From: Thermodesulfobacteriota bacterium
GTDB lineage: Bacteria; Desulfobacterota; Binatia; UBA9968; JAJDTQ01
DNA: 64,000 nt
Reading direction: 5' to 3'
NCBI GenBank assembly: GCA_965116735.1
Contig: OZ220712.1
Span: 4,866,534 to 4,930,533, forward strand
Part shown: positions 38,230 through 48,983 of the stretch, one piece after another
Numbering within the stretch: the first letter of the stretch is position 1
How the letters are laid out: each line of letters begins with the position of its first letter
The notes under the pieces: generated by a model
Database searches by the model: none
Told to the model about the DNA's origin: nothing
The model's input: only the letters and a program-made list of their open reading frames with translations
Position numbers and translations under genes: made by a program

Positions 38230-39560
38230 GGCCGGTCGGAAATGCTATCATTGGAACAAAGAGCACGTGCACGAGGAGGCCCGTTCTTCCCTCCGTCATT
38301 CCGCGACCCTCCGTCATTTGTATGTTGAGAAAGCCTCTCAGATCGGCCAATTTGAGGGGTAGGCATGCGGGGGGAGCCGCACGTCATAGGGTGAGAGTCT
38401 TTAGGGGCTCTGCACCGGGCGGGAGTAGGACACCCCGCATGCCAGTTGTCGCTCCGAACAGATACCGGGGGGTAGTGGCCCCGCATAAGCAAGTGTGGAG
38501 GACAGCGTCATCCTAGCAGAAGAGGAGGCGGGCATGAAGGTATATGCAGGGCTAGATGTAGGCAAGCGGGAGTTGGTGGTGTGGGTGATGGGCGAGGGGT
38601 TGCGGCGGTTCAGGAATGAGGCAGGGGGCATCCGGGAGATGCGGGAGTGGCTGAGAGCGGAGGGGGTGAAGCAGGTGGTGTGTGAGGCGACGGGGGGCTA
38701 CGAGCGGGGGGTGGTAGCGGGACTGAAGGGGAGTGGGGTGGCGGTGCACGTGGCGCATCCGACGCGGGTACGGGGGTTTGCGCAGGCGCTGGGGCGTGGG
38801 GCCAAGACCGATCCTATGGACGCGGAGGTGCTGGCGCATTACGGCGCGATGATGAAGGTGGAGGGGGAGGAGGAGGGGGACGGTGCCAGTGAGGAGTTAC
38901 GGGAGGTGTTGGGACGTAGGCAGCAGTTGGTGCAGCAGCGAGTGCAGGAACTCAATCGGCTGGAGAAGGGGCTTCGGGGGGCGAACAAGAAGTCCTGTGA
39001 GCGCCATGTGGCATGGCTGGACAAGGAGATCGCGCGGCTGGACAAGGCCCTCCAGGCGCTGTGGCGGCGTCACCCGGAGTTGCGGGAACGGGCGGCCCTG
39101 TATCAGAGCGTGAAGGGCGTGGGAGAGCTCACCGCGGCCACCTTGCTCGGGTACTTGCCCGAACTGGGCCGAGGGTGCGGCAGAGGCTTGACCTCCTTGG
39201 CGGGCTTGGCGCCTTGGTCCCACGACAGCGGCCGGCGTCAAGGCTACCGCGCCATCCGCGGTGGCCGTGGCACCGTCCGTCGGGCCTTGTACATGGCCGC
39301 GCTGTCAGCGACACGGTGCAACCCCGAACTGGGTGGTTTCTATCGTCGGTTGCGGCGCCGCGGCAAGCCCGCAAAGGTGGCCCTGGTGGCGGTGATGCGA
39401 AAGCTCTTGTTGCAACTCCATGCCATCGCACGCCGTGGCACCCCGTGGTTGCCGACCCCCAACCCACAGCCACTTAGCCCTTGACTCCCATCACAGATAC
39501 TCCCGCGAAAGCGGGAATCCAGGGGGCGGGGTGGTGGAGGGTGGCGCGAACGAAGGGAGG
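38230..39560 (+). mobile_element. IS110-family insertion sequence (boundaries approximate)
   Basis: The element comprises a DEDD-type transposase gene plus about 300 bp of structured 5' non-coding sequence. IS110 elements lack terminal inverted repeats, so the ends cannot be fixed from sequence alone. Confidence 0.6.
38534..39484 (+). CDS. IS110-family transposase
   Basis: MKVYAGLDVGKREL is the DEDD/RuvC-like N-terminus. The C-terminal Transposase_20-like region has GVG..TAA.L.......F.....L....GL.P...SG. Confidence 0.85.
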   Translation: MKVYAGLDVGKRELVVWVMGEGLRRFRNEAGGIREMREWLRAEGVKQVVCEATGGYERGVVAGLKGSGVAVHVAHPTRVRGFAQALGRGAKTDPMDAEVLAHYGAMMKVEGEEEGDGASEELREVLGRRQQLVQQRVQELNRLEKGLRGANKKSCERHVAWLDKEIARLDKALQALWRRHPELRERAALYQSVKGVGELTAATLLGYLPELGRGCGRGLTSLAGLAPWSHDSGRRQGYRAIRGGRGTVRRALYMAALSATRCNPELGGFYRRLRRRGKPAKVALVAVMRKLLLQLHAIARRGTPWLPTPNPQPLSP

Positions 39561-41159: not shown

Positions 41160-43693
41160 ACGCCGGAACGATGGTACGCTACTTCTACAGGACCGTGTCC
41201 GCCCACTGGCGCACCAATCCCGTGCTCTACGCTCTTACCGTCCTCGGCGTGGCCCTGGGGGTGGCCTCGGTCATCAGCATCCGCATCCTCAACCAGAGCG
41301 CAGTGGCTTCATTTGCCGCCGGGGTCCGCACCATCGGCGGCGCGGCGGATATCGTCGTCACCGGCAAGGGCGGCACTCTTCCCGACGCGGCGTACCCGCT
41401 TGTCCGGGGCACGCCTGGGGTAACCGCGGCCTGGCCGGTCTTCGAGACCACGGTAGCGGTGGATGGACGGCCCGGCACGTTCGCGCGGCTTCTGGGTGTG
41501 GACCTGCTGGCGCCCGCCCCGGACCTTTGGGGGGCGTTTTCGGGATTCGCGCCGGGCGCGCCGGCCGCCGCCGGCCGCGGCTGGGCGGCGGCCACCCCGG
41601 AGCTGGCAAGGGTCATGGGATGGGTGCCGGGCGACCGCTTCAAGGTCCGTGACGGCGCCGGCTCGCGACAGCTCCGGTTCGGGGCGTTGATCGACTTCGA
41701 GCGGTGGGGCGCGTCCGGAGAGCGCCAGGCGCTGGTGATGGACATCGCGGACGCCCAGTCCCTGTTCGGCGGCGCCGGGACCCTCCACCGCATCGGCGTG
41801 GCGGCGGCCGAGGGCGCCGATCTTCCGGCGCTGGCGGCCCGAATCGAGGACAGGCTCGACGGCCGGGCGGACGCGGTGACACCGTCGGAGCGCACCGGCC
41901 AGGCGCGGGAGCTCCTCGGGGCGTTCCGGTTGAACCTTACCGCCATGAGCCTGGTGAGCCTCCTGGTGGGGACGTTCCTTGTGTTCAGCAGCATGCGCGC
42001 CTGTCTGGTGTGGCAGCGCAGGGAGTTCGGGGTGCTGCGGTCCTTGGGTTCAACCCCGGGCCAGGTCCTGGCGCTGATCCTGGGAGAGGCCGCGTTGCTC
42101 GGGGTCATGGGAGTGGGCATCGGCATTCTTGCGGGCTACTGGACCGCGGTCTGGAACCTGGAGGCGGTGAGTTCCACCCTGACCAACGTCTACATGCTCC
42201 GGGAGATCGAGTCGTTGGAGCTCTCGGGCGGCACCCTGGCGCTGGCCGTGTTCGCGGGCCTGGGGGGCGCTCTGAGCGGCACCTTGCTGCCTGCCCTGGA
42301 CGTGTGGCGAAGGGACACGCGGACGCTGCTCGATACCTTGCCGGCCCAGTCGGCGGGAACGGCCGGCACTCGCGTGCTCTTCCGTCTCGGCCTCGTGCTC
42401 GTCGCCGGGGCGCTGGCGTGGTACTGGCTGATCGGCTGGCGCTGGCGGCTCACGGGCTTCGTCCTTTCCACCGCCGTGATGCTGTGTCTGCCGCTGTTGA
42501 CCCCTTGGCTGGTGCAGCGTCTTACCGCGTGGATCCGGGTCCCGGACTTCGGCTTCCGGTATGGGGTCCGGAGCCTCGGGGCGACCCTGGCCAACACCTC
42601 GTTCTCGGTATCGTCCCTGGCCATGGCCGTGTGCCTGCTGGTGGGCATCACCCTGCTGGTGGAGAGTTTCCGCGAGACCCTGGTGCGCTGGGTGGACCGT
42701 TCACTCACCGCCGACGTCTTCGTGACCGCGACCGTCGGAGCGCGGCCCGGGCCGGACGCGACCCTGAGCGCGCAACTCGTGGAGCGGCTGGCGAGCAGGC
42801 CCGACGTGGAGGGAGTCGGTCCGCTGCGCCGCCTGTTCCTGGACGTGGAGGGCCGGCGCGTGGCGGTGGTGGGCGTAGACCTCAACCGTCCGGCGGCGCG
42901 GCAGCGCCTGGCGCTTCTGTCGGGCGGGGATGGCGCGGAGCGCGCGATGCGGGAGCGCGGCATCCTCATCGGCGAGCCGCTGTCCTCGAGCGCGTCGGTC
43001 ACGGTGGGGGATACGATAGAGATCGCAGGGGCGCAGGGACCGGTGCGCCTGCCGGTGTCGGGGATCTACCGGGACTACACGCAGGGCGGCTCGGTCACCA
43101 TGGATCTCGGCCTCATGGCGGAAACGTTGGGTCCCGGTGACCTCACCAGCATCGCGCTTCAACTGAGGCTGGGCGCGGACCCGGAAGCGGTGGCGGCGGG
43201 CATCGAAAGCCGGCATCCGGGCGGCTCCCTGCGAGTGCGTAGCAACCGCCACCTGAAGGAGGACATTCTCCGCGTCTTCGACCAGACCTTCGCGGTGACC
43301 CGGATCCTCCAGGTCATGAGCCTGATCATCGCGGCCTGCGCCATCACCCTGACGCTCCTGGTGGTGGCGCAGGAGAAGGCGAGCGAGATCGCCCTGTACC
43401 GCACGCTGGGCGCCTTTCGCAGGCAGGTGTTCTTGCTGTTCGTCAGCAAGGGGACCGCCATGGCATTCCTGGGTCTGGTGCTGGGCTTCGCCGGCGGCAT
43501 CGGCCTCGGTGCGATCCTGATCTTCGTCATCCAGAAGAGCTACTTCGGCTGGAGCATCGAGTGGGCCTGGCCGTGGTGGCCGCTGGCCGGAGAGGCCCTC
43601 GCCATCGTATGCGCCGCGGTGCTGGCGAGCCTCTACCCGGCGTTCAAGGCCAGCCGAACACCGGCCAACGAGCTGTGCCATGCGGATGCGTGA
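41156..43693 (+). CDS. ABC transporter permease with duplicated FtsX domains
   Basis: The 845-aa product has two MacB-like periplasmic plus FtsX 4-TM modules. Confidence 0.8.
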   Translation: MNAGTMVRYFYRTVSAHWRTNPVLYALTVLGVALGVASVISIRILNQSAVASFAAGVRTIGGAADIVVTGKGGTLPDAAYPLVRGTPGVTAAWPVFETTVAVDGRPGTFARLLGVDLLAPAPDLWGAFSGFAPGAPAAAGRGWAAATPELARVMGWVPGDRFKVRDGAGSRQLRFGALIDFERWGASGERQALVMDIADAQSLFGGAGTLHRIGVAAAEGADLPALAARIEDRLDGRADAVTPSERTGQARELLGAFRLNLTAMSLVSLLVGTFLVFSSMRACLVWQRREFGVLRSLGSTPGQVLALILGEAALLGVMGVGIGILAGYWTAVWNLEAVSSTLTNVYMLREIESLELSGGTLALAVFAGLGGALSGTLLPALDVWRRDTRTLLDTLPAQSAGTAGTRVLFRLGLVLVAGALAWYWLIGWRWRLTGFVLSTAVMLCLPLLTPWLVQRLTAWIRVPDFGFRYGVRSLGATLANTSFSVSSLAMAVCLLVGITLLVESFRETLVRWVDRSLTADVFVTATVGARPGPDATLSAQLVERLASRPDVEGVGPLRRLFLDVEGRRVAVVGVDLNRPAARQRLALLSGGDGAERAMRERGILIGEPLSSSASVTVGDTIEIAGAQGPVRLPVSGIYRDYTQGGSVTMDLGLMAETLGPGDLTSIALQLRLGADPEAVAAGIESRHPGGSLRVRSNRHLKEDILRVFDQTFAVTRILQVMSLIIAACAITLTLLVVAQEKASEIALYRTLGAFRRQVFLLFVSKGTAMAFLGLVLGFAGGIGLGAILIFVIQKSYFGWSIEWAWPWWPLAGEALAIVCAAVLASLYPAFKASRTPANELCHADA

Positions 43694-44813
43694 GAAGATG
43701 GCATGTGTCCTGGCGCTGGCCGCGGCGGTGCTTTGGCCCGGGATCGCTCCCCACGCCTGGACCCCGGCTCAACCCGGCTACGAGTGGTCGTTTCCCCGGG
43801 ATCACTGGGCGCGCGGCGGCTACAAGACCGAGTGGTGGTACTTCACGGGACATCTCCGCACCGCGGGAGAATCCGCCCGTCTCTTGGGCTACCAGTTCAC
43901 TTTCTTCAGGATCGGCGTGTCGGAAGACGCCCGTAGTGGCGGTTCCGCCTGGGCCGCCAACGACATCATCATGGGTCACGCCGCCCTTACCGACCTGGAA
44001 ACCGGCCGGCACCGCTTCAGCGAGCTGGTGGCGCGGGCCGCGCCCCTGCTGGCCGGCTTCGGCCGCCATCCGGACCCGCGCATCGCCTGGAGCGTCGGTC
44101 CTCCGGGCACGCCCGACGAATGGCAGCTCCGCTGGAACGGCGACGGTTTCGACTTCATCATGTCGGACGCCGGGAAGTCCTTCGGCTTCCAGCTTTCCAC
44201 CCGCCCGCTCAAGCCCGTGGTGTTCCAGGGTCCCGGCGGCCTGAGCCGCAAAGGGGAGGGCGCCACCGAGGCCAGCCACTACTACAGCTTCACCCGCATG
44301 GCCACCACCGGCACGGTCCGCCTGGAAGGAAAGGAGTGGGAGGTCAGCGGCACGAGCTGGATGGACAAGGAGTTCGGCTCCAACCAGCTCGGCGAGGAGA
44401 CCGAAGGGTGGGACTGGTTCAGCCTCCAGCTCGACGACGGCCGCGAGGTCATGCTCTACGTCCTCCGAAACCGCGACGGCGGCACGCGCTACGCCGGCGC
44501 TACGCTGGTGGACCCTGAGGGCGGCGTGCGCTATCTCCGTCCGGGCGAGTGGGAGTTGAACACGACCGGTCGATGGAACAGCCCTGCCACGGGCGCACCT
44601 TATCCCGCCCGCTGGACTCTCGATATCCCGTCCGCCAGCATCCGCACGGTCATCACCCGCAAGGTCGCGGATCAGGAGAACCGTAGCGTGCTGATCCCGA
44701 ACCTGTTCTACTGGGAAGGTTCCGTCCAAGTGGAGTCCAGGGAAGGGGAGAAAATCGGACAGGGCTACGTGGAGTTGACGGGGTATGGCGAGGATAGCCG
44801 ACCGCCGATTTGA
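43680..44813 (+). CDS. AttH/CrtC-like lipocalin-fold lipoprotein associated with the ABC system
   Basis: Signal peptide plus a hydroxyneurosporene-synthase/AttH-like beta-rich domain. It is encoded directly after the ABC ATPase and permease, matching the attEFGH arrangement. Confidence 0.6.
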   Translation: MRMREKMACVLALAAAVLWPGIAPHAWTPAQPGYEWSFPRDHWARGGYKTEWWYFTGHLRTAGESARLLGYQFTFFRIGVSEDARSGGSAWAANDIIMGHAALTDLETGRHRFSELVARAAPLLAGFGRHPDPRIAWSVGPPGTPDEWQLRWNGDGFDFIMSDAGKSFGFQLSTRPLKPVVFQGPGGLSRKGEGATEASHYYSFTRMATTGTVRLEGKEWEVSGTSWMDKEFGSNQLGEETEGWDWFSLQLDDGREVMLYVLRNRDGGTRYAGATLVDPEGGVRYLRPGEWELNTTGRWNSPATGAPYPARWTLDIPSASIRTVITRKVADQENRSVLIPNLFYWEGSVQVESREGEKIGQGYVELTGYGEDSRPPI

Positions 44814-44942
44814 AATACGTGCCTTCGAAACCGGAAAAGAAGGAGCTTGTGCATCGCGTCGTAACGGTGGCACGCGAGGTGCAACGAGAACCCTCACCGG
44901 TGGCACTGTACGGCCGTCCGCGGTCCGGGCTCAAGGCCGCCG

Positions 44943-45086
44943 GTGGTTGAGCAGCAAGTGATCGTTGGTGTCTTGGACGACATGGACGCCGAAATCACTG
45001 CACTGGAAGCTAGGCTCTCCAAGGCCCGCCAGATCAAGCAGGGCATGATGCAGGAACTGCTCGCCGGAAGGACTCGGCTTGTATGA
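44943..45086 (+). pseudogene. hsdS: type I R-M specificity subunit (hsdS) C-terminal remnant
   Basis: Translation ...LEARLSKARQIKQGMMQELLAGRTRLV* matches the conserved HsdS C-terminal coiled-coil tail. There is no upstream target-recognition domain or hsdM. Confidence 0.5.
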
Positions 45087-46513
45087 AAGAAGCCCAGCAC
45101 ACCGAATGGAAACAGAGTTGGCGCGACGAGTATCTGCGTTGGATCTGCGGCTTTGCCAATGCCGAGGGAGGTGTGCTGATCATCGGGCGCAATGATAGGG
45201 GAGTTGCGGTCGGCGTGAATAATGCCAGGAGGCTACTGGAGGAACTGCCCAACAAGGTACGCGATCTCCTCGGCATCGTGGTCGCTGTCAACTTGGTGAT
45301 GGAAGCGGGCAAGGAGTTGGTTGAAATCCGCGTCGAGCCCTATCCGAGTCCGATCAGTTACAAAGGCGAATACCACTATCGCAGCGGCAGCACCAAGCAG
45401 GTACTGAAGGGAGCAGCGCTCCAGCGTTTCCTGATGCGCAGGCAAGGGCGGCATTGGGATGACGCGCCTGTGCCTGGGTTCGACGCCGCGGATTGCAGCC
45501 AGGACGCATTCCGATTGTTCAGGACCAGGGCCATGGAAAGCAGGCGCGTCAGTGAAGAGGCGCTAAGGGACGAGAATGAGTCCTTGCTGGAAAGCCTGCA
45601 ACTCAGAGACGGGCAGTACTTCAAACGGGCGGCGACCCTGCTCTTCTCCGAGAACCCGGAACGCCATGTCAGCGGCGCCTACATCAAGATCGGTTTCTTC
45701 ATCACTGATGACGATTTGCGGTATCAGGACGAGATCCACGGCAACCTTTTCATGCAGGCTGAGAAAACGCTCGATCTCATGTTCTCCAAGTACCTGAAGG
45801 CGTACATCAGCTATGAAGGTCTCCAGCGGCTGGAGAAGTTCCTCTTCCCTTATCCGGCCGTGCGTGAAGCGCTGCTCAATGCCGTGGTCCATAAAGACTA
45901 CAGCAGCGGTATACCGATCCAGGTCAGTGTGTACGATGACAAGATAGTGCTGTGGAATTCCGGGCAGTTACCGCAGGATTGGACACTTGAACGACTCCTG
46001 GGCAAACATCCTTCAGCTCCCTACAACCCGCTCATCGCCGGTGCCTTCTTTCGCGCCGGCTACATTGAAGCCTGGGGTCGCGGCATCGAGAAGATCAATC
46101 GCGAGTGCCGCGAGCATGGCATTGATCCGCCCCTTTATGACAGCGGCATGTCCGGTTTGATGGTGACCTTCCGTGCCAACCCTCAGCACTTGGTTGCAGC
46201 GCTCGGTGAGGCTGGGGCAAACCGGATCTTGGAAGGCGGGGTCGGAGAAAAGGTCGGAGAAAAGGTCGGAGAAAAGGTCGGAGAAAAGGTCGGAGAAAAG
46301 GTCGGAGAAAAGGTCGGAGATAAACTGACACCCAACCAGCAGCAGATTCTGGACCTGCTGAGGCAGCATCCTCACATGTCGGCAATCGAGCTGGCACAGC
46401 AGATTGGGATTTCCAGCCGAAAGACAGAGCAGAACATCGCCAGACTGAAGGAACTGCGACTCCTCGAGCGTATCGGGCCCGCCAGAGGCGGCCACTGGGA
46501 GGTGTTGCAGTGA
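45083..46513 (+). CDS. AlbA_2 (Schlafen-like) / HATPase_c_4 / C-terminal wHTH protein of R-M loci
   Basis: The 476-aa product has the N-terminal EWKQSW..E....ICGFANAEGGVLIIG divergent-AAA/AlbA_2 motif and a C-terminal HTH (LTPNQQQILDLL..HPHMSAIELAQQIGISSRKTEQNIARLKE). It is embedded between the hsdS and hsdR remnants. Confidence 0.7.
   Translation: MKEAQHTEWKQSWRDEYLRWICGFANAEGGVLIIGRNDRGVAVGVNNARRLLEELPNKVRDLLGIVVAVNLVMEAGKELVEIRVEPYPSPISYKGEYHYRSGSTKQVLKGAALQRFLMRRQGRHWDDAPVPGFDAADCSQDAFRLFRTRAMESRRVSEEALRDENESLLESLQLRDGQYFKRAATLLFSENPERHVSGAYIKIGFFITDDDLRYQDEIHGNLFMQAEKTLDLMFSKYLKAYISYEGLQRLEKFLFPYPAVREALLNAVVHKDYSSGIPIQVSVYDDKIVLWNSGQLPQDWTLERLLGKHPSAPYNPLIAGAFFRAGYIEAWGRGIEKINRECREHGIDPPLYDSGMSGLMVTFRANPQHLVAALGEAGANRILEGGVGEKVGEKVGEKVGEKVGEKVGEKVGDKLTPNQQQILDLLRQHPHMSAIELAQQIGISSRKTEQNIARLKELRLLERIGPARGGHWEVLQ
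46241..46324 (+). repeat. 12-bp tandem repeat (gtcggagaaaag) x6 + 1 degenerate, in-frame (VGEK)n
   Basis: Six perfect copies plus one variant copy lie inside the AlbA_2 gene, encoding GVGEKVGEKVGEKVGEKVGEKVGEKVGDK. Confidence 0.9.
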
Positions 46514-46822
46514 GCAGCGTGGGCCAACCCGAGCGCGTGACCCAGAACCGAGTGATCGCCCTGTTCCGCGGTTCAGTTCATTTTCGCAGGCAACGATTCC
46601 GAGGGGTTGCGGTACGGCGCCATCGGGACGCCGGAAAAGTTCTTCCTCAAGTGGAAGGAGGACGAGGACGACAACAGCCGGCTCAAGCTCGGCAAGTACC
46701 TGCTCAAGATGTGCCGCAAGGACCGGCTGATCGAGTTGATGCACGACTTCGTGCTGAAAGAAGGAGGGAGGGCATGTCATGGACAAGCATGTGATCGATC
46801 CGCAGGTCTACGACCTGTATGA
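46510..46822 (+). pseudogene. hsdR: type I restriction endonuclease subunit R (hsdR) fragments
   Basis: The GTG start overlaps the AlbA_2 stop (GTGA). Frame 1 gives MSSVGQPERVTQNRVIALFRG, an HsdR N-terminus. Frame 2 gives VQFIFAGNDSEGLRYGAIGTPEKFFLKWKED...RLIELMHDFVL, the motif block that follows the HsdR nuclease domain. The frames are not contiguous and the helicase domains are absent. Confidence 0.5.
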
Positions 46823-47663
46823 CGAGTACTGCCACAGCAACATGGAGCGCCGAGAGTTCCTCCGACGCGCGGCCGCCCTCGTCGTTGTCGGCGGGTCGGC
46901 GCTGGCGATGGCGGAGGCGATGCTGCCGCGCTACGTAAGGGCGCAGACGATTTCCTTTACCGACAAGCGCATCAAGGCGCGCTATGTCACGCACGATTCG
47001 CCCGGCGGCAACTCCGGAAAGATGCGCGGCTACCTGGTGCAGCCGGCCGGGGCGGGCCCTTTTCCCGCCGTTCTCGTCATTCACGAGAACCGGGGGCTGA
47101 ACCCGCATATCGAAGATGTCGCCCGGCGCGCGGCGGTGGCCGGGTTTCTCGCCCTGGCCCCGGACGGTCTCTCGCCCATCGGCGGCTATCCCGGCAATGA
47201 CGATGACGGCAAGAAGATGCAGAGGAGCCTCGACCGCGGCAAGCTGCGCACGGACCTCCTCAACAGCGCCCGGTATCTCAAGGCCCACGAGCTATCCAAC
47301 GGGAAGCTGGGCGCCACCGGCTTCTGCTTCGGCGGCGGCGTGGTCAATTACCTCGCGGTGCAGATGGGAAGCGATCTGAGTGCCGGCGTGCCGTTCTACG
47401 GCTCCGCCCCGAAGTCGGCCGACGATGTCGCCAAGATCAAGGCCGCGCTGCTTATCCAGTACGCGGAGAACGATCCGCGCATCAACAAGCGGGCTCCGGC
47501 CTATCACGCCGCGCTGGAGGCCAACGGCGTGGCATACGAGGCGCATACCTATCCGGGAACGCGTCACGGCTTTCACAACAATTCGACGCCGCGCTACGAC
47601 GAAGCCGCCGCCAAGCTGGCATGGGAGCGGACGGTGGCCTTCTTCAAGAAGCACCTGTCGTAG
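46779..47663 (+). CDS. dienelactone hydrolase-family protein with Tat signal
   Basis: RREFLRRAAALVVVGGSALA is a twin-arginine signal. The DLH fold has the GFCFGGG nucleophile motif. Confidence 0.8.
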   Translation: MDKHVIDPQVYDLYDEYCHSNMERREFLRRAAALVVVGGSALAMAEAMLPRYVRAQTISFTDKRIKARYVTHDSPGGNSGKMRGYLVQPAGAGPFPAVLVIHENRGLNPHIEDVARRAAVAGFLALAPDGLSPIGGYPGNDDDGKKMQRSLDRGKLRTDLLNSARYLKAHELSNGKLGATGFCFGGGVVNYLAVQMGSDLSAGVPFYGSAPKSADDVAKIKAALLIQYAENDPRINKRAPAYHAALEANGVAYEAHTYPGTRHGFHNNSTPRYDEAAAKLAWERTVAFFKKHLS

Positions 47664-47747
47664 TCGAGCGGACCAACGTTGTGCGTAGGGGAAACCGGCG
47701 GTCTTGCGGCCGCCGGTTTCGTTCTTGAAGGGCTATACCGCGGGCCT

Positions 47748-48983
47748 CTACTCCGCCTGCAACGCCACGATGGGATCCACGCGGGCCGCGTGCCGGGCCG
47801 GCTGGAGGCCGAAGAAGATGCCGGCGAGGGACGAGACGGCGATGCCGCTGGCCGCGGCGGCGGCGGAGAGCGAGAAATCCCATTCCGTGAGCGCGCAGAT
47901 GGCCCAGGTGAACGCGGAACCGGCCGCGACGCCGAGGAGGCCGCCGGTCACGCAGAGCAGCACGGACTCCACCAGGAACTGATTGCGGATGTCGCTCCGG
48001 CGGGCTCCCATGGCGCGCCGGATGCCGATTTCCCGGCGCCGCTCGGCCACCGACACCAGCATGGTGTTCATCACGCCGATGCCGCCCACTACAAGGGAGA
48101 TGCCGCCGATGGCGGCGAGCAGCAGCGTCATGAGCCGCATCTGCGATTCGACCTGCTCGATGAGCTCCTTGGCGCTTGCGACGTCGAGCTTCAGACGCGG
48201 CGCTCTCGTGCGGAACCACGACCGCACGGCGCGGGTTGCCGCCGCATGGTGGACGCCGGCGCGGGTGCGGGCGATGACCAGACGGACCTCCGGCCTGTCG
48301 CCGAGGCGTCGCGCGGTGGTGATGGGAATGAACACGGAGCGGTTCGCATCGAGATGGAACGACAGCGCGTAGTGGTCCACGGCGTCCCGCAGCACGCCGG
48401 CCACGGTGAAGGGAAGGCCGGCGGCCACGATGGGCTCGCCCACGACTCGCCGGGCGCCCGCGCGGCGCATGGCGCGGGCCACCTCCGCGCCCACTACGGC
48501 GAAATACCGGTGGTCGTCGAAGTCGGAAATGAACCGGCCACGGTCGAGCCGGAGGTCGTTGACGTCCGCGAACGCCGCCGTAACCCCCTGGAGAGTGACG
48601 TGGCCCACGCGCCTCCCGGCGTACCTGACGGCCCGGCCGGAGGTGATTCTGGGCGCGGCGGCTACGATGGAGGGAACCTCCTCCGCGAGCTGCATGGCGT
48701 CCGAGAGCGCGATGCCGCGCCCGTCGTCGCCGGATGGTGCAATGGCGAGGATGTCGGTGCCCAGGGACTCCAACTCGGCCCGCGACTTGGCCTTGGCGAT
48801 ATCGCCCAACGAGATCATGGTGATCACCGACGCGATGCCCACGGCGACGCCAACGAGCGCCAGCACGGTGCGCATCCTCGTCCTGGAGAGGCTTTGCGCC
48901 GCCTCGCGCGCATCGGTTCTCAGGAGTGCGAAGGCTCTTCCCATGGCGTTGCGGACCCGCTTCCATTTCCATTTCCGGGCCAT
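47748..48983 (-). CDS. MacB-like ABC transporter permease (FtsX family)
   Basis: The 411-aa product has an N-terminal TM, a periplasmic domain, and a C-terminal FtsX 3-TM bundle. Confidence 0.8.
   Translation of the reverse strand: MARKWKWKRVRNAMGRAFALLRTDAREAAQSLSRTRMRTVLALVGVAVGIASVITMISLGDIAKAKSRAELESLGTDILAIAPSGDDGRGIALSDAMQLAEEVPSIVAAAPRITSGRAVRYAGRRVGHVTLQGVTAAFADVNDLRLDRGRFISDFDDHRYFAVVGAEVARAMRRAGARRVVGEPIVAAGLPFTVAGVLRDAVDHYALSFHLDANRSVFIPITTARRLGDRPEVRLVIARTRAGVHHAAATRAVRSWFRTRAPRLKLDVASAKELIEQVESQMRLMTLLLAAIGGISLVVGGIGVMNTMLVSVAERRREIGIRRAMGARRSDIRNQFLVESVLLCVTGGLLGVAAGSAFTWAICALTEWDFSLSAAAAASGIAVSSLAGIFFGLQPARHAARVDPIVALQAE

Follow-up and report, generated by a model that had tools for sequence, protein, structure and literature searches.

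Remains of a mobile type I restriction-modification cassette around an intact Schlafen-GHKL ATPase-winged helix gene in Candidatus Binatia

A gene that stays whole while the operon around it is reduced to stubs raises the question of whether it has been kept for a function of its own. This question is posed by a locus in a 64,000-nt stretch of contig OZ220712.1 (hereafter the window, which always means the whole stretch). Here, a gene for a 476-aa protein with a Schlafen (AlbA_2) domain, a GHKL ATPase domain, and a winged helix-turn-helix (wHTH) is enclosed by fragments of the type I restriction-modification (R-M) genes hsdS and hsdR. The locus lies between an AttH-like lipocalin gene and a dienelactone hydrolase (DLH) gene. 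A first-pass annotation had described it as a decayed type I R-M locus and had taken the selective retention of the accessory gene as a sign of an R-M-independent function. The finding is real and has been correctly interpreted at the structural level. What the locus records is the ordinary and recent decay, by deletion, of a mobile defence cassette. The functional part of the claim is plausible and is supported from outside the window, but this locus alone does not establish it. Comparison contigs and loci are designated by numbers with the prefix L (L001–L168 etc.), and the coordinates of all features are collected in Table 1.

Remains of the cassette and their deletion junctions

Both ends of the Schlafen gene are locked into the remains of its former neighbors. 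The hsdS remnant on the left matches the PADLOC model Specificity_I (E 9.7e-20, model positions 395–438 of 443) and, in tblastn, aa 340–390 of the intact 390-aa HsdS of L003 (72.5% identity, E 5e-17). It comprises ~47 of ~390–418 codons and does not keep the two target-recognition domains, and the next gene upstream ends 130 nt before it. The TGA of this tail overlaps the ATG of the Schlafen gene by 4 bp (ATGA). On the right, the GTG of hsdR at 46510 overlaps the stop of the Schlafen gene (GTGA) and opens a short head with 69% identity to aa 1–26 of the L003 HsdR (tblastn). Both overlaps had been read in this way in the first-pass annotation. The head is followed in another frame by an internal piece of hsdR that matches the PADLOC model REase_I (E 6.6e-17, positions 193–247 of 1034) and shows 91% aa identity to aa 181–248 of the intact 1044-aa HsdR of L004. 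The jump to an internal hsdR block, as annotated, holds for 46571–46756. The last 66 nt of the annotated span (46757–46822) belong not to hsdR but to the DLH gene, of which they form the native leader and the 5′ end, read out of frame. Only codons 1–20 and ~182–243 of ~1044 are thereby left of hsdR, and the helicase and nuclease domains are all gone.

The short fragments were assigned with PADLOC profiles and tblastn with intact relatives, Pfam and NCBIfam being insensitive to pieces of this size. Searches of the hsdS and hsdR fragments against the latter two databases gave nothing useful, with TIGR00348 (E 0.006) as the sole match and none for the hsdS piece, which is too short. By the methods used, the similarity of the fragments to HsdS and HsdR is significant and well beyond chance. 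Full-length HsdM, HsdS, HsdR, and YgjP found no further match in the 64-kb window by tblastn, and this includes the 812-aa HsdM queries of L003, L086, and L088. The loss of hsdM, of the remainder of hsdS, and of the hsdR helicase domains, which had also been proposed, is confirmed in this way. Judged by its gene content, the window holds no functional type I R-M system, and it does descend from one.

The ancestral state is displayed by the nearest full-length relatives (L003, L086, L087, and L088; 80–86% identity), which carry the intact operon hsdM-hsdS-slfn-hsdR with 4-bp overlaps identical to those of the window, and against which the breakpoints can be mapped. Their genes encode proteins of 799–812 aa (hsdM), 390–418 aa (hsdS), 464–468 aa (Schlafen gene), and 1041–1043 aa (hsdR). 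A YgjP-like metallopeptidase gene follows hsdR in L086, L087, and L088, while L003 ends inside hsdR. The cassettes of L086 and L087 additionally contain an HNH gene and are flanked by recombinase and transposase genes. These comparisons show that the locus in the window is what is left of a mobile type I R-M cassette in which a gene was embedded between hsdS and hsdR.

In Binatia, the cassette takes the order NTP_transf_8 gene-hsdM-hsdS-Schlafen/GHKL/wHTH gene-hsdR-ygjP-like peptidase gene. The first of these, a nucleotidyltransferase gene (335 aa; PF12281, E 1e-48), travels with the R-M cassette and is found on either side of the AttH-like gene, depending on the genome (L069 453–1460; L011 7428–8621; L015 7243–8510; L019 3265–4518; L017 1876–3140). 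Between it and hsdM lie fragments of the gene that is found downstream of the insertion (AttH in L069, DLH in L011).

Alignment with the relatives shows the loss of at least 9 kb in three illegitimate deletions: ~5.7 kb on the left, 476 bp within hsdR, and at least 3 kb on the right. The left junction falls at ~44936–44944, as the flank is common with L011 up to ~44936 (blastn pairs window 44757–44900 with L011 7102–7248) and homology to hsdS begins at ~44944. In L015, the ~5.7 kb between the left flank and the hsdS tail consist of the NTP_transf_8 gene, hsdM, and most of hsdS. At the internal hsdR junction, the blastn coordinates in L003 (9452 to 9927) and in L004 (9461 to 9936) overlap by 2 nt. 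The right junction was mapped by comparison of window positions 46700–46800 with L017, L019, L069, and intact hsdR; this deletion took the rest of hsdR, ygjP, and a promoter-like block of the DLH gene. An assembly error as the cause of the frameshift is unlikely, since 0.5 kb and several kb were deleted at the lesions. The presence of the exact 476-aa protein on contigs of several assemblies likewise counts against such an error.

The Schlafen gene and its class

The Schlafen gene is complete, as the first-pass annotation had stated. Its product contains three Pfam domains above their cut-offs, namely SLFN_AlbA_2 (PF04326, residues 3–107, 44.8 bits with a cut-off of 25.3), HATPase_c_4 (PF13749, residues 276–363, 73 bits with a cut-off of 26), and HTH_24 (residues 416–457, 28.2 bits with a cut-off of 21.9, 1.5e-6). 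Among the candidates scored, 6622 homologs fall at E<=1e-20, nearly all of them 448–492 aa long, and relative to these the window protein is full length. In an alignment of 56 homologs, E3, E8, W9, and K10 of the nuclease motif, G23, F24, N26, and A27 of the Schlafen box, and R261, E262, L265, and N266 together with the G-rich lid (G326...G332-R-G334) of the ATPase are invariant. The window protein deviates from columns conserved to at least 90% at six positions, compared to a family median of five. The motifs for nuclease activity and ATP binding are intact, as are the Schlafen box and the wHTH, and the protein shows no sign of degeneration.

The AlphaFold2 model (mean predicted local distance difference test score, pLDDT, of 79) contains three folded domains, and its residues 386–413 form a disordered linker (pLDDT <50). 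In Foldseek, the N-terminal domain resembles SLFN12, SLFN11, SLFN13-N, SLFN5-N, and the tRNase domain of SAMD9 (probability 0.9–1.0), the middle domain resembles histidine-kinase catalytic (CA) domains, and the C-terminus resembles the winged helices of MarR and SmtB with a root-mean-square deviation of ~2 Å. The only solved structure that matches the full length is DIP2311 from Corynebacterium diphtheriae (PDB 3LMM, Foldseek E 1e-23), a structural-genomics entry with 16–18% identity. It was also the only PDB entry found by sequence, with a phmmer match of 1.2e-5 over the GHKL portion.

A perfect 12-bp tandem repeat encodes the linker that joins the ATPase to the wHTH (Table 1). A tetrapeptide linker of at least three units is present in 86 of the 114 full-length homologs. 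Its units vary across the family (VGEK, VEAR, SVEM, VETP, SVKT, TPIT, TQET), proteins of the close clade vary in length in steps of 4 aa, and a scrap of the gene in L017 (7243–7389) holds at least 11 repeat copies. The repeat suggests a length variation that would be driven by slippage. The linker and wHTH (window 46320–46513) occur as two clearly different alleles on N-terminal cores that are 92–94% identical in DNA. The alpha allele is found in the window, L003, L019, L069, and L086–L088, and the beta allele in L004, L021, and L016. Different alleles on near-identical cores indicate that recombination at the repeat or close to it has exchanged the module. The swap resembles the shuffling of specificity domains in hsdS.

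The combination of AlbA_2 with PF13749 has been named the “Schlatpase” supradomain and is present in 60,692 of 103,533 prokaryotic Schlafen proteins, mostly small proteins with or without a C-terminal HTH; the nuclease motif E(x)4(D/E)xK and the Schlafen box were defined and named in the same work, which also recorded module exchange with type I R-M operons (bioRxiv 10.64898/2026.05.29.728809). Schlafen-HisKinase-HTH proteins make up 19.2% of bacterial Schlafens, and 30.4% of Schlafen genes are located away from known defence genes (PMC13056530). The small Schlatpase-wHTH form is the second most common bacterial Schlafen architecture. Schlafens with ATPase or DNA-binding domains have been tied to R-M, BREX, and type I CRISPR loci (PMC13462974). 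The window protein shares the domain order, the Pfam families, the motifs, and the short C-terminal HTH of this Schlatpase or pSlfn HisKinase-HTH class, whose tie to type I R-M systems and defence islands is documented (bioRxiv 10.64898/2026.05.29.728809; PMC13056530; PMC13462974). No architectural difference separates it from the class; the window copy has lost its R-M partner genes. These comparisons show the gene to be, by its predicted product, a further full-length member of the known and very common Schlatpase-HTH class, which is functionally unproven.

Table 1. Positions of the features discussed, in window coordinates.
Feature	Position	Strand	Basis or remark
AttH/CrtC-like lipocalin gene, 377 aa	43680..44813	+	last gene of a MacB-type ABC transporter unit; host flank
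Non-coding left flank of the hot spot	44814..44942	.	common to genomes with the intact cassette at the same site
hsdS 3′ remnant, last 47 codons, C-terminal conserved helix	44943..45086	+	PADLOC, tblastn
Schlafen(AlbA_2)-GHKL ATPase-winged HTH gene, 476 aa, intact	45083..46513	+	“Schlatpase-HTH”, pSlfn HisKinase-HTH class
Schlafen nuclease motif E3-x4-E8-x-K10 (E3-AQHT-E8-W-K10)	45089..45112	+	alignment
Schlafen box C22-G-F-A-N-A27, counterpart of SAFAN	45146..45163	+	alignment
GHKL N-box E262-x3-N266, ATP gamma-phosphate and Mg2+ ligands	45866..45880	+	alignment
12-bp tandem repeat GGTCGGAGAAAA x6.8, (VGEK)n linker between ATPase and wHTH	46240..46320	+	TRF, 100% matches
C-terminal winged helix-turn-helix, residues ~417–474, alpha allele	46331..46504	+	HTH_24; three helices and a beta-hairpin in the model
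hsdR 5′ remnant, codons 1–20	46510..46570	+	GTG start; tblastn, DNA alignment
Internal hsdR deletion junction, 476 bp, frameshifting	46569..46570	.	2-bp microhomology (CG)
hsdR internal remnant, 62 codons, ~aa 182–243 of 1044	46571..46756	+	other frame than the head
Right deletion junction	46750..46756	.	7-bp microhomology CGTGCTG, common to hsdR and the native DLH leader
Native DLH leader (ribosome-binding site), 22 nt	46757..46778	+	comparison with empty-site relatives
Dienelactone hydrolase (DLH) gene, 294 aa	46779..47663	+	Pfam DLH 2.3e-45; host flank

Decay at the hot spot and survival of the gene

A comparison of ~25 Binatia loci identifies the MacB-AttH-DLH region as what is, from its gene arrangements, a hot spot in which the cassette occurs in every stage of decay, from intact over stub-flanked and gene-truncated to empty. 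The site is empty in L006, L009, and L010, where AttH and DLH are adjacent and ~150 bp apart. At exactly the site of the window, between AttH and DLH, the R-M genes are intact in L011, L012, and L015, which have hsdM and hsdS there and of which L015 reaches into the start of the Schlafen gene; all three loci end before hsdR. Residues 186–476 of the Schlafen gene and the hsdR head are left in L013, and only a scrap of the linker repeat is left in L017, which keeps the DLH promoter. In L069, L019, L021, and L016, the element is found on the other side of AttH, between MacB and AttH. L069 holds an in-frame fusion of hsdM(1–~305) to hsdS, an intact Schlafen gene, and hsdR aa 6–118, and L019 equals L069 minus two deletions, which spare the open reading frame (ORF) together with 44 nt before and 5 nt after it. 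In L021, the ORF is left between an hsdS tail of 45 codons and 48 nt of hsdR, and L016 has an internal deletion in the Schlafen gene. Among the seven decayed hot-spot loci (the window, L013, L016, L017, L019, L021, and L069), none has an intact hsd gene, whereas the Schlafen gene is intact in four and reduced to pieces in three. The related genomes hint that, of all parts of the cassette, the Schlafen gene tends to disappear last.

The possibility that the insertions on the two sides of AttH are separate cassettes was rejected, because the same NTP_transf_8-hsdM... element is present at both sites. The fusion in L069 (1721–3721) is a deletion-made chimeric ORF of 666 aa that keeps the NPPF motif. 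At a third location (L004/L005), hsdM is lost, hsdS is split, and both the Schlafen gene and hsdR are intact. In L004 (1–7100, Binatia OZ253480.1) and L002 (1–7100), the Schlafen gene is located in a dense defence island with HEPN_AbiV, GmrSD, AAA_15, AbiEi, and HicAB. In L002, a 12x long-read assembly whose frameshifts may be errors, neither the Schlafen gene (369 aa) nor hsdR is whole.

The flanks belong to the host, which is assigned to Candidatus Binatia by its orthologs. The AttH-like protein (Pfam CrtC 7e-46, Lipocalin_9 8e-40) has orthologs with 73–83% identity in ~25 Candidatus Binatia genomes, and DLH is 93–96% identical to its Binatia orthologs. The G+C content is 54–61% between the two genes and 65–75% in the surrounding DNA, which points to a foreign origin of this 1.9-kb stretch. 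Scans for Rfam families (E<=0.1) and for tRNAs returned no matches in the region or the window, so that no tRNA-linked integration site is indicated. The sole candidate for flanking repeats, as an att or target-duplication signature, is a 19-nt pair with 79% identity and a 10-nt exact core (44836, 46757), and it was rejected because it is about the chance expectation in 2.6 kb. The AttH-like protein (43680–44813) is only 81% identical to that of the nearest genome, L006, whereas the MacB permease and DLH on its flanks reach 96% identity; AttH at the hot spot is unusually divergent, or has recombined. The MacB-AttH junction is known in two types, with overlapping genes or with a variable spacer. 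An IS110-family transposase gene (DEDD_Tnp_IS110/Transposase_20) is located at ~38534–39484 (L001 3452–4402), ~5 kb upstream of the hot spot and next to trpA/trpB and an epimerase gene.

Outside the hot spot, the stub-gene-stub layout recurs in the unrelated metagenome contigs L102, L103, L148, and L168 (58–63% identity). Among 80 metagenomic relatives, ~20 have no hsd homology on either side and at least 40 are embedded. Solitary copies are found, for example, between glyS/lgt and an unrelated gene (L108) or between a PBP1 gene and serS/dsbA (L144). A further solitary homolog (L120 4990–6246) is located ~1.7 kb from a Csm6-type HEPN protein (Cas_Cas02710, Csm6_6H), a neighborhood that hints at other defence contexts for the Schlatpase-HTH family. 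Frequent solitary copies argue against an obligate dependence on an R-M partner, to the extent that gene neighborhoods reveal it.

Several observations weigh against the explanation preferred below, which includes a predicted effector role and some R-M-independent value of the gene. Pairwise ratios of non-synonymous to synonymous substitution rates (dN/dS) for the core of the Schlafen gene in solitary copies are 0.06–0.10 at dS 0.17–0.31. The dead hsdR fragment reaches a value as low, 0.05, in comparison with L004 (12 synonymous and 3 non-synonymous differences), and dN/dS was rejected as a test of retention. The window-specific changes in the fragment (3 synonymous, 1 non-synonymous) follow the pattern of intact hsdR genes. 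Since purifying selection is still visible in the fragment, hsdR must have been constrained along almost all of the terminal branch. The decay is therefore recent, and a 1.4-kb ORF would be expected to be intact in any case. The low dN/dS of the gene is not creditable to selection after the decay. The Schlafen gene is itself lost or truncated in L013, L016, L017, and possibly L002. It is located near the physical center of a ~11-kb cassette, where erosion from two sides leaves it last without selection. No promoter on the + strand was found in 43500–47800 by a consensus scan, which may not suit Binatia. The role of the wHTH is pure inference. In E. coli, two of the seven tested Schlafen constructs gave protection, neither of them a HisKinase fusion, and the two Schlafen-HisKinase fusions did not protect against the phage panel used (PMC13056530), so that defence is unproven for this architecture.

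The simplest alternative is that the gene is a passenger that has not yet been deleted, with ~5.7 kb of cassette to its left and 4–5 kb to its right and no need for selection. This is rather unlikely to be the whole explanation, although much of the pattern agrees with it. The recency of the decay is as expected, and the upstream deletion ends form a continuum from ~2000 nt (L069) over 140 (window) and 134 (L021) to 44 nt (L019) before the gene, and inside it in L013, L016, and L017. The microhomology at the junctions is typical of illegitimate deletion. The lineage-specific changes in L069 also give no clear signal of selective maintenance: the truncated hsdM′ is relaxed, with 24 synonymous and 18 non-synonymous changes (11:4, 31:10, and 17:4 in intact relatives), and the Schlafen gene, without relaxation, 10:3, but with such small counts the two are not statistically separable. 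Against a mere passenger stands the fact that the junctions on both sides differ between the window, L019, and L021 and yet all spare the ORF and 44–140 nt upstream. The layout is moreover repeated in distant lineages, and many relatives are stably solitary among housekeeping genes with no trace of hsd. The varied junctions, the recurrent stubs, and the solitary copies are suggestive against pure neutrality, though not conclusive. An R-M-independent function of the Schlafen gene is accordingly named here as plausible, as judged from these comparisons. A stronger version would see small Schlatpase-wHTH proteins as autonomous modules and systematic last survivors of type I cassettes, maintained by an R-M-independent fitness benefit (a stand-alone abortive-infection tRNase or a TrlG-like growth control), with the linker and wHTH as a changeable sensor or specificity module; this may be entertained tentatively and is on balance doubtful.

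The remaining alternatives assign the survival to the surroundings of the gene or a different activity to its product. All genes from MacB to DLH are co-oriented, and no convincing terminator was found in 43500–47800, where terminator-like sites are at chance level. A promoter-like block (TTGCAT-16 nt-TAGAAT) is located upstream of DLH in L006, L009, L010, L016, L019, L069, and L017, that is, in all empty-site relatives and in L017, and is absent in the window. The island might consequently be kept because DLH now needs transcription through the Schlafen gene and deletions must preserve the read-through, and L017, which keeps the DLH promoter, has indeed lost the Schlafen gene. Read-through needs no intact ORF, however, and leaves the undamaged gene unexplained; DLH itself is dispensable in L013, and each state has a single example, all of which makes this explanation improbable. 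A protein that acts mainly as a wHTH transcription factor of the R-M operon, like a controller (C) protein, and that is now useless or domesticated as a host regulator, would fit the MarR/ArsR-SmtB type of its C-terminal wHTH and the label “transcriptional regulator” in public annotations of relatives. It is very improbable, since the invariance of the nuclease and ATPase catalytic residues in 56 homologs is unexpected for a mere repressor and wHTH alleles that swap between near-identical cores point rather to a module for specificity or sensing. C proteins, which work with C-box operators, are typically small (~80–100 aa), bear an Xre-type HTH, and are encoded ahead of the restriction gene. 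The window protein lacks these features of size, HTH type, and position and is enzyme-like, with 476 aa, three domains, and a MarR/ArsR-type wHTH. It is hardly credible, finally, that the hsdS-tail and hsdR-head stubs are the homology arms of a mobile recombination cassette of which the window copy landed outside an operon. The hsdS 3′ and hsdR 5′ ends are the most conserved DNA around the gene, and the stub-gene-stub layout recurs. Deletion in place is documented by L069, L019, and L021, however, intact R-M genes occupy exactly the site of the window in L011, L012, and L015, and no homology arm would include the internal hsdR piece (codons ~182–243). The in situ decay series and this fragment largely refute the idea.

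Predicted role and meaning for the family

The explanation that best joins these observations, and that is held with reasonable though limited confidence, is a recent deletional remnant of an R-M cassette with an intact Schlatpase-HTH protein, likely a tRNase effector, whose survival reflects recency, central position, and some R-M-independent value. The cassette had inserted between the AttH-like and DLH genes of a Candidatus Binatia bacterium and was subsequently reduced by the three deletions. The persistence of the gene would probably be the sum of the recent decay, its place in the middle of the cassette, and some value without the R-M system. In the window, the gene is probably still transcribed by read-through from the MacB-AttH unit, and transcription through it probably now also supplies DLH, whose own promoter-like block was deleted. 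In analogy to characterized relatives, the protein may be an ATP-gated, oligomerization-dependent Schlafen tRNase that arrests translation. The wHTH on its flexible tetrapeptide-repeat linker would act as a DNA-sensing or regulatory module.

The mechanistic template is RzAgo, a SLFN-pAgo from Runella zeae with an N-terminal Schlatpase module in common with the window protein (the PADLOC pAgo model matches residues 15–298, 3e-18). Its ATP-driven tetramerization pairs the Schlafen domains and leads to tRNA cleavage (bioRxiv 10.64898/2026.05.29.728809). Only from RzAgo and further Schlafen fusions are ATP-dependent oligomerization and tRNA cleavage known. E314 and N318 of RzAgo are functional and equivalent to E262 and N266 of the window protein. 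The sensor of RzAgo is a long-B Argonaute core, compared to only a 60-residue wHTH in the window protein, and the trigger must therefore differ. RorSlfn5 and Cash provide further precedents for tRNases (PMC13462974; PMC13056530).

In the intact cassette, the gene was most likely a second-line effector coupled to the restriction enzyme, as suggested by its location in the slot of prrC between hsdS and hsdR. PrrC, the classical tRNA nuclease of this kind, lies within a type IC locus and is set free on inhibition of the restriction enzyme (PMC12707154). PrrC/RloC and the Schlafen gene take the identical slot hsdM-hsdS-X-hsdR in the intact relatives, and ancestrally in the window, and both are predicted NTPase-gated, tRNA-directed nucleases (PMC12707154). 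PrrC combines an ABC-type ATPase with its own nuclease domain and has no relation in sequence or fold to the window protein, for which Pfam, NCBIfam, and PADLOC reported no PrrC/RloC or ABC-ATPase family. A further difference is that PrrC is held latent by its R-M enzyme, whereas the family of the window protein is often solitary. The window gene is hence described as a positional, and probably functional, analogue of PrrC and not as its homologue. A chromosomal gene outside an R-M operon is known in TrlG from the temperature-restriction locus of Photorhabdus laumondii, which combines AlbA_2 with HATPase_c_4 and causes growth arrest at 36 °C (PMC7554251). Its architecture is like that of the window protein by domains alone; TrlG is part of a three-gene operon with TrlF and TrlR and lacks the fused wHTH.

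The wider interest of the locus is confined to the comparative pattern: the graded decay at the hot spot, the stub-gene-stub arrangement in unrelated contigs, and the number of solitary copies. As a natural experiment, the Binatia hot spot presents one cassette in a whole and a half-deleted state, with only the Schlafen gene left, with only a scrap of that gene left, and gone altogether. It concerns a gene class that is abundant (the 60,692 Schlafen-GHKL proteins of one census) yet functionally unproven. If no selection is involved, the locus is an ordinary example of the rapid deletional turnover of defence islands. If the persistence reflects selection, Schlatpase-HTH proteins would not strictly need a restriction partner, which would favor testing them alone.

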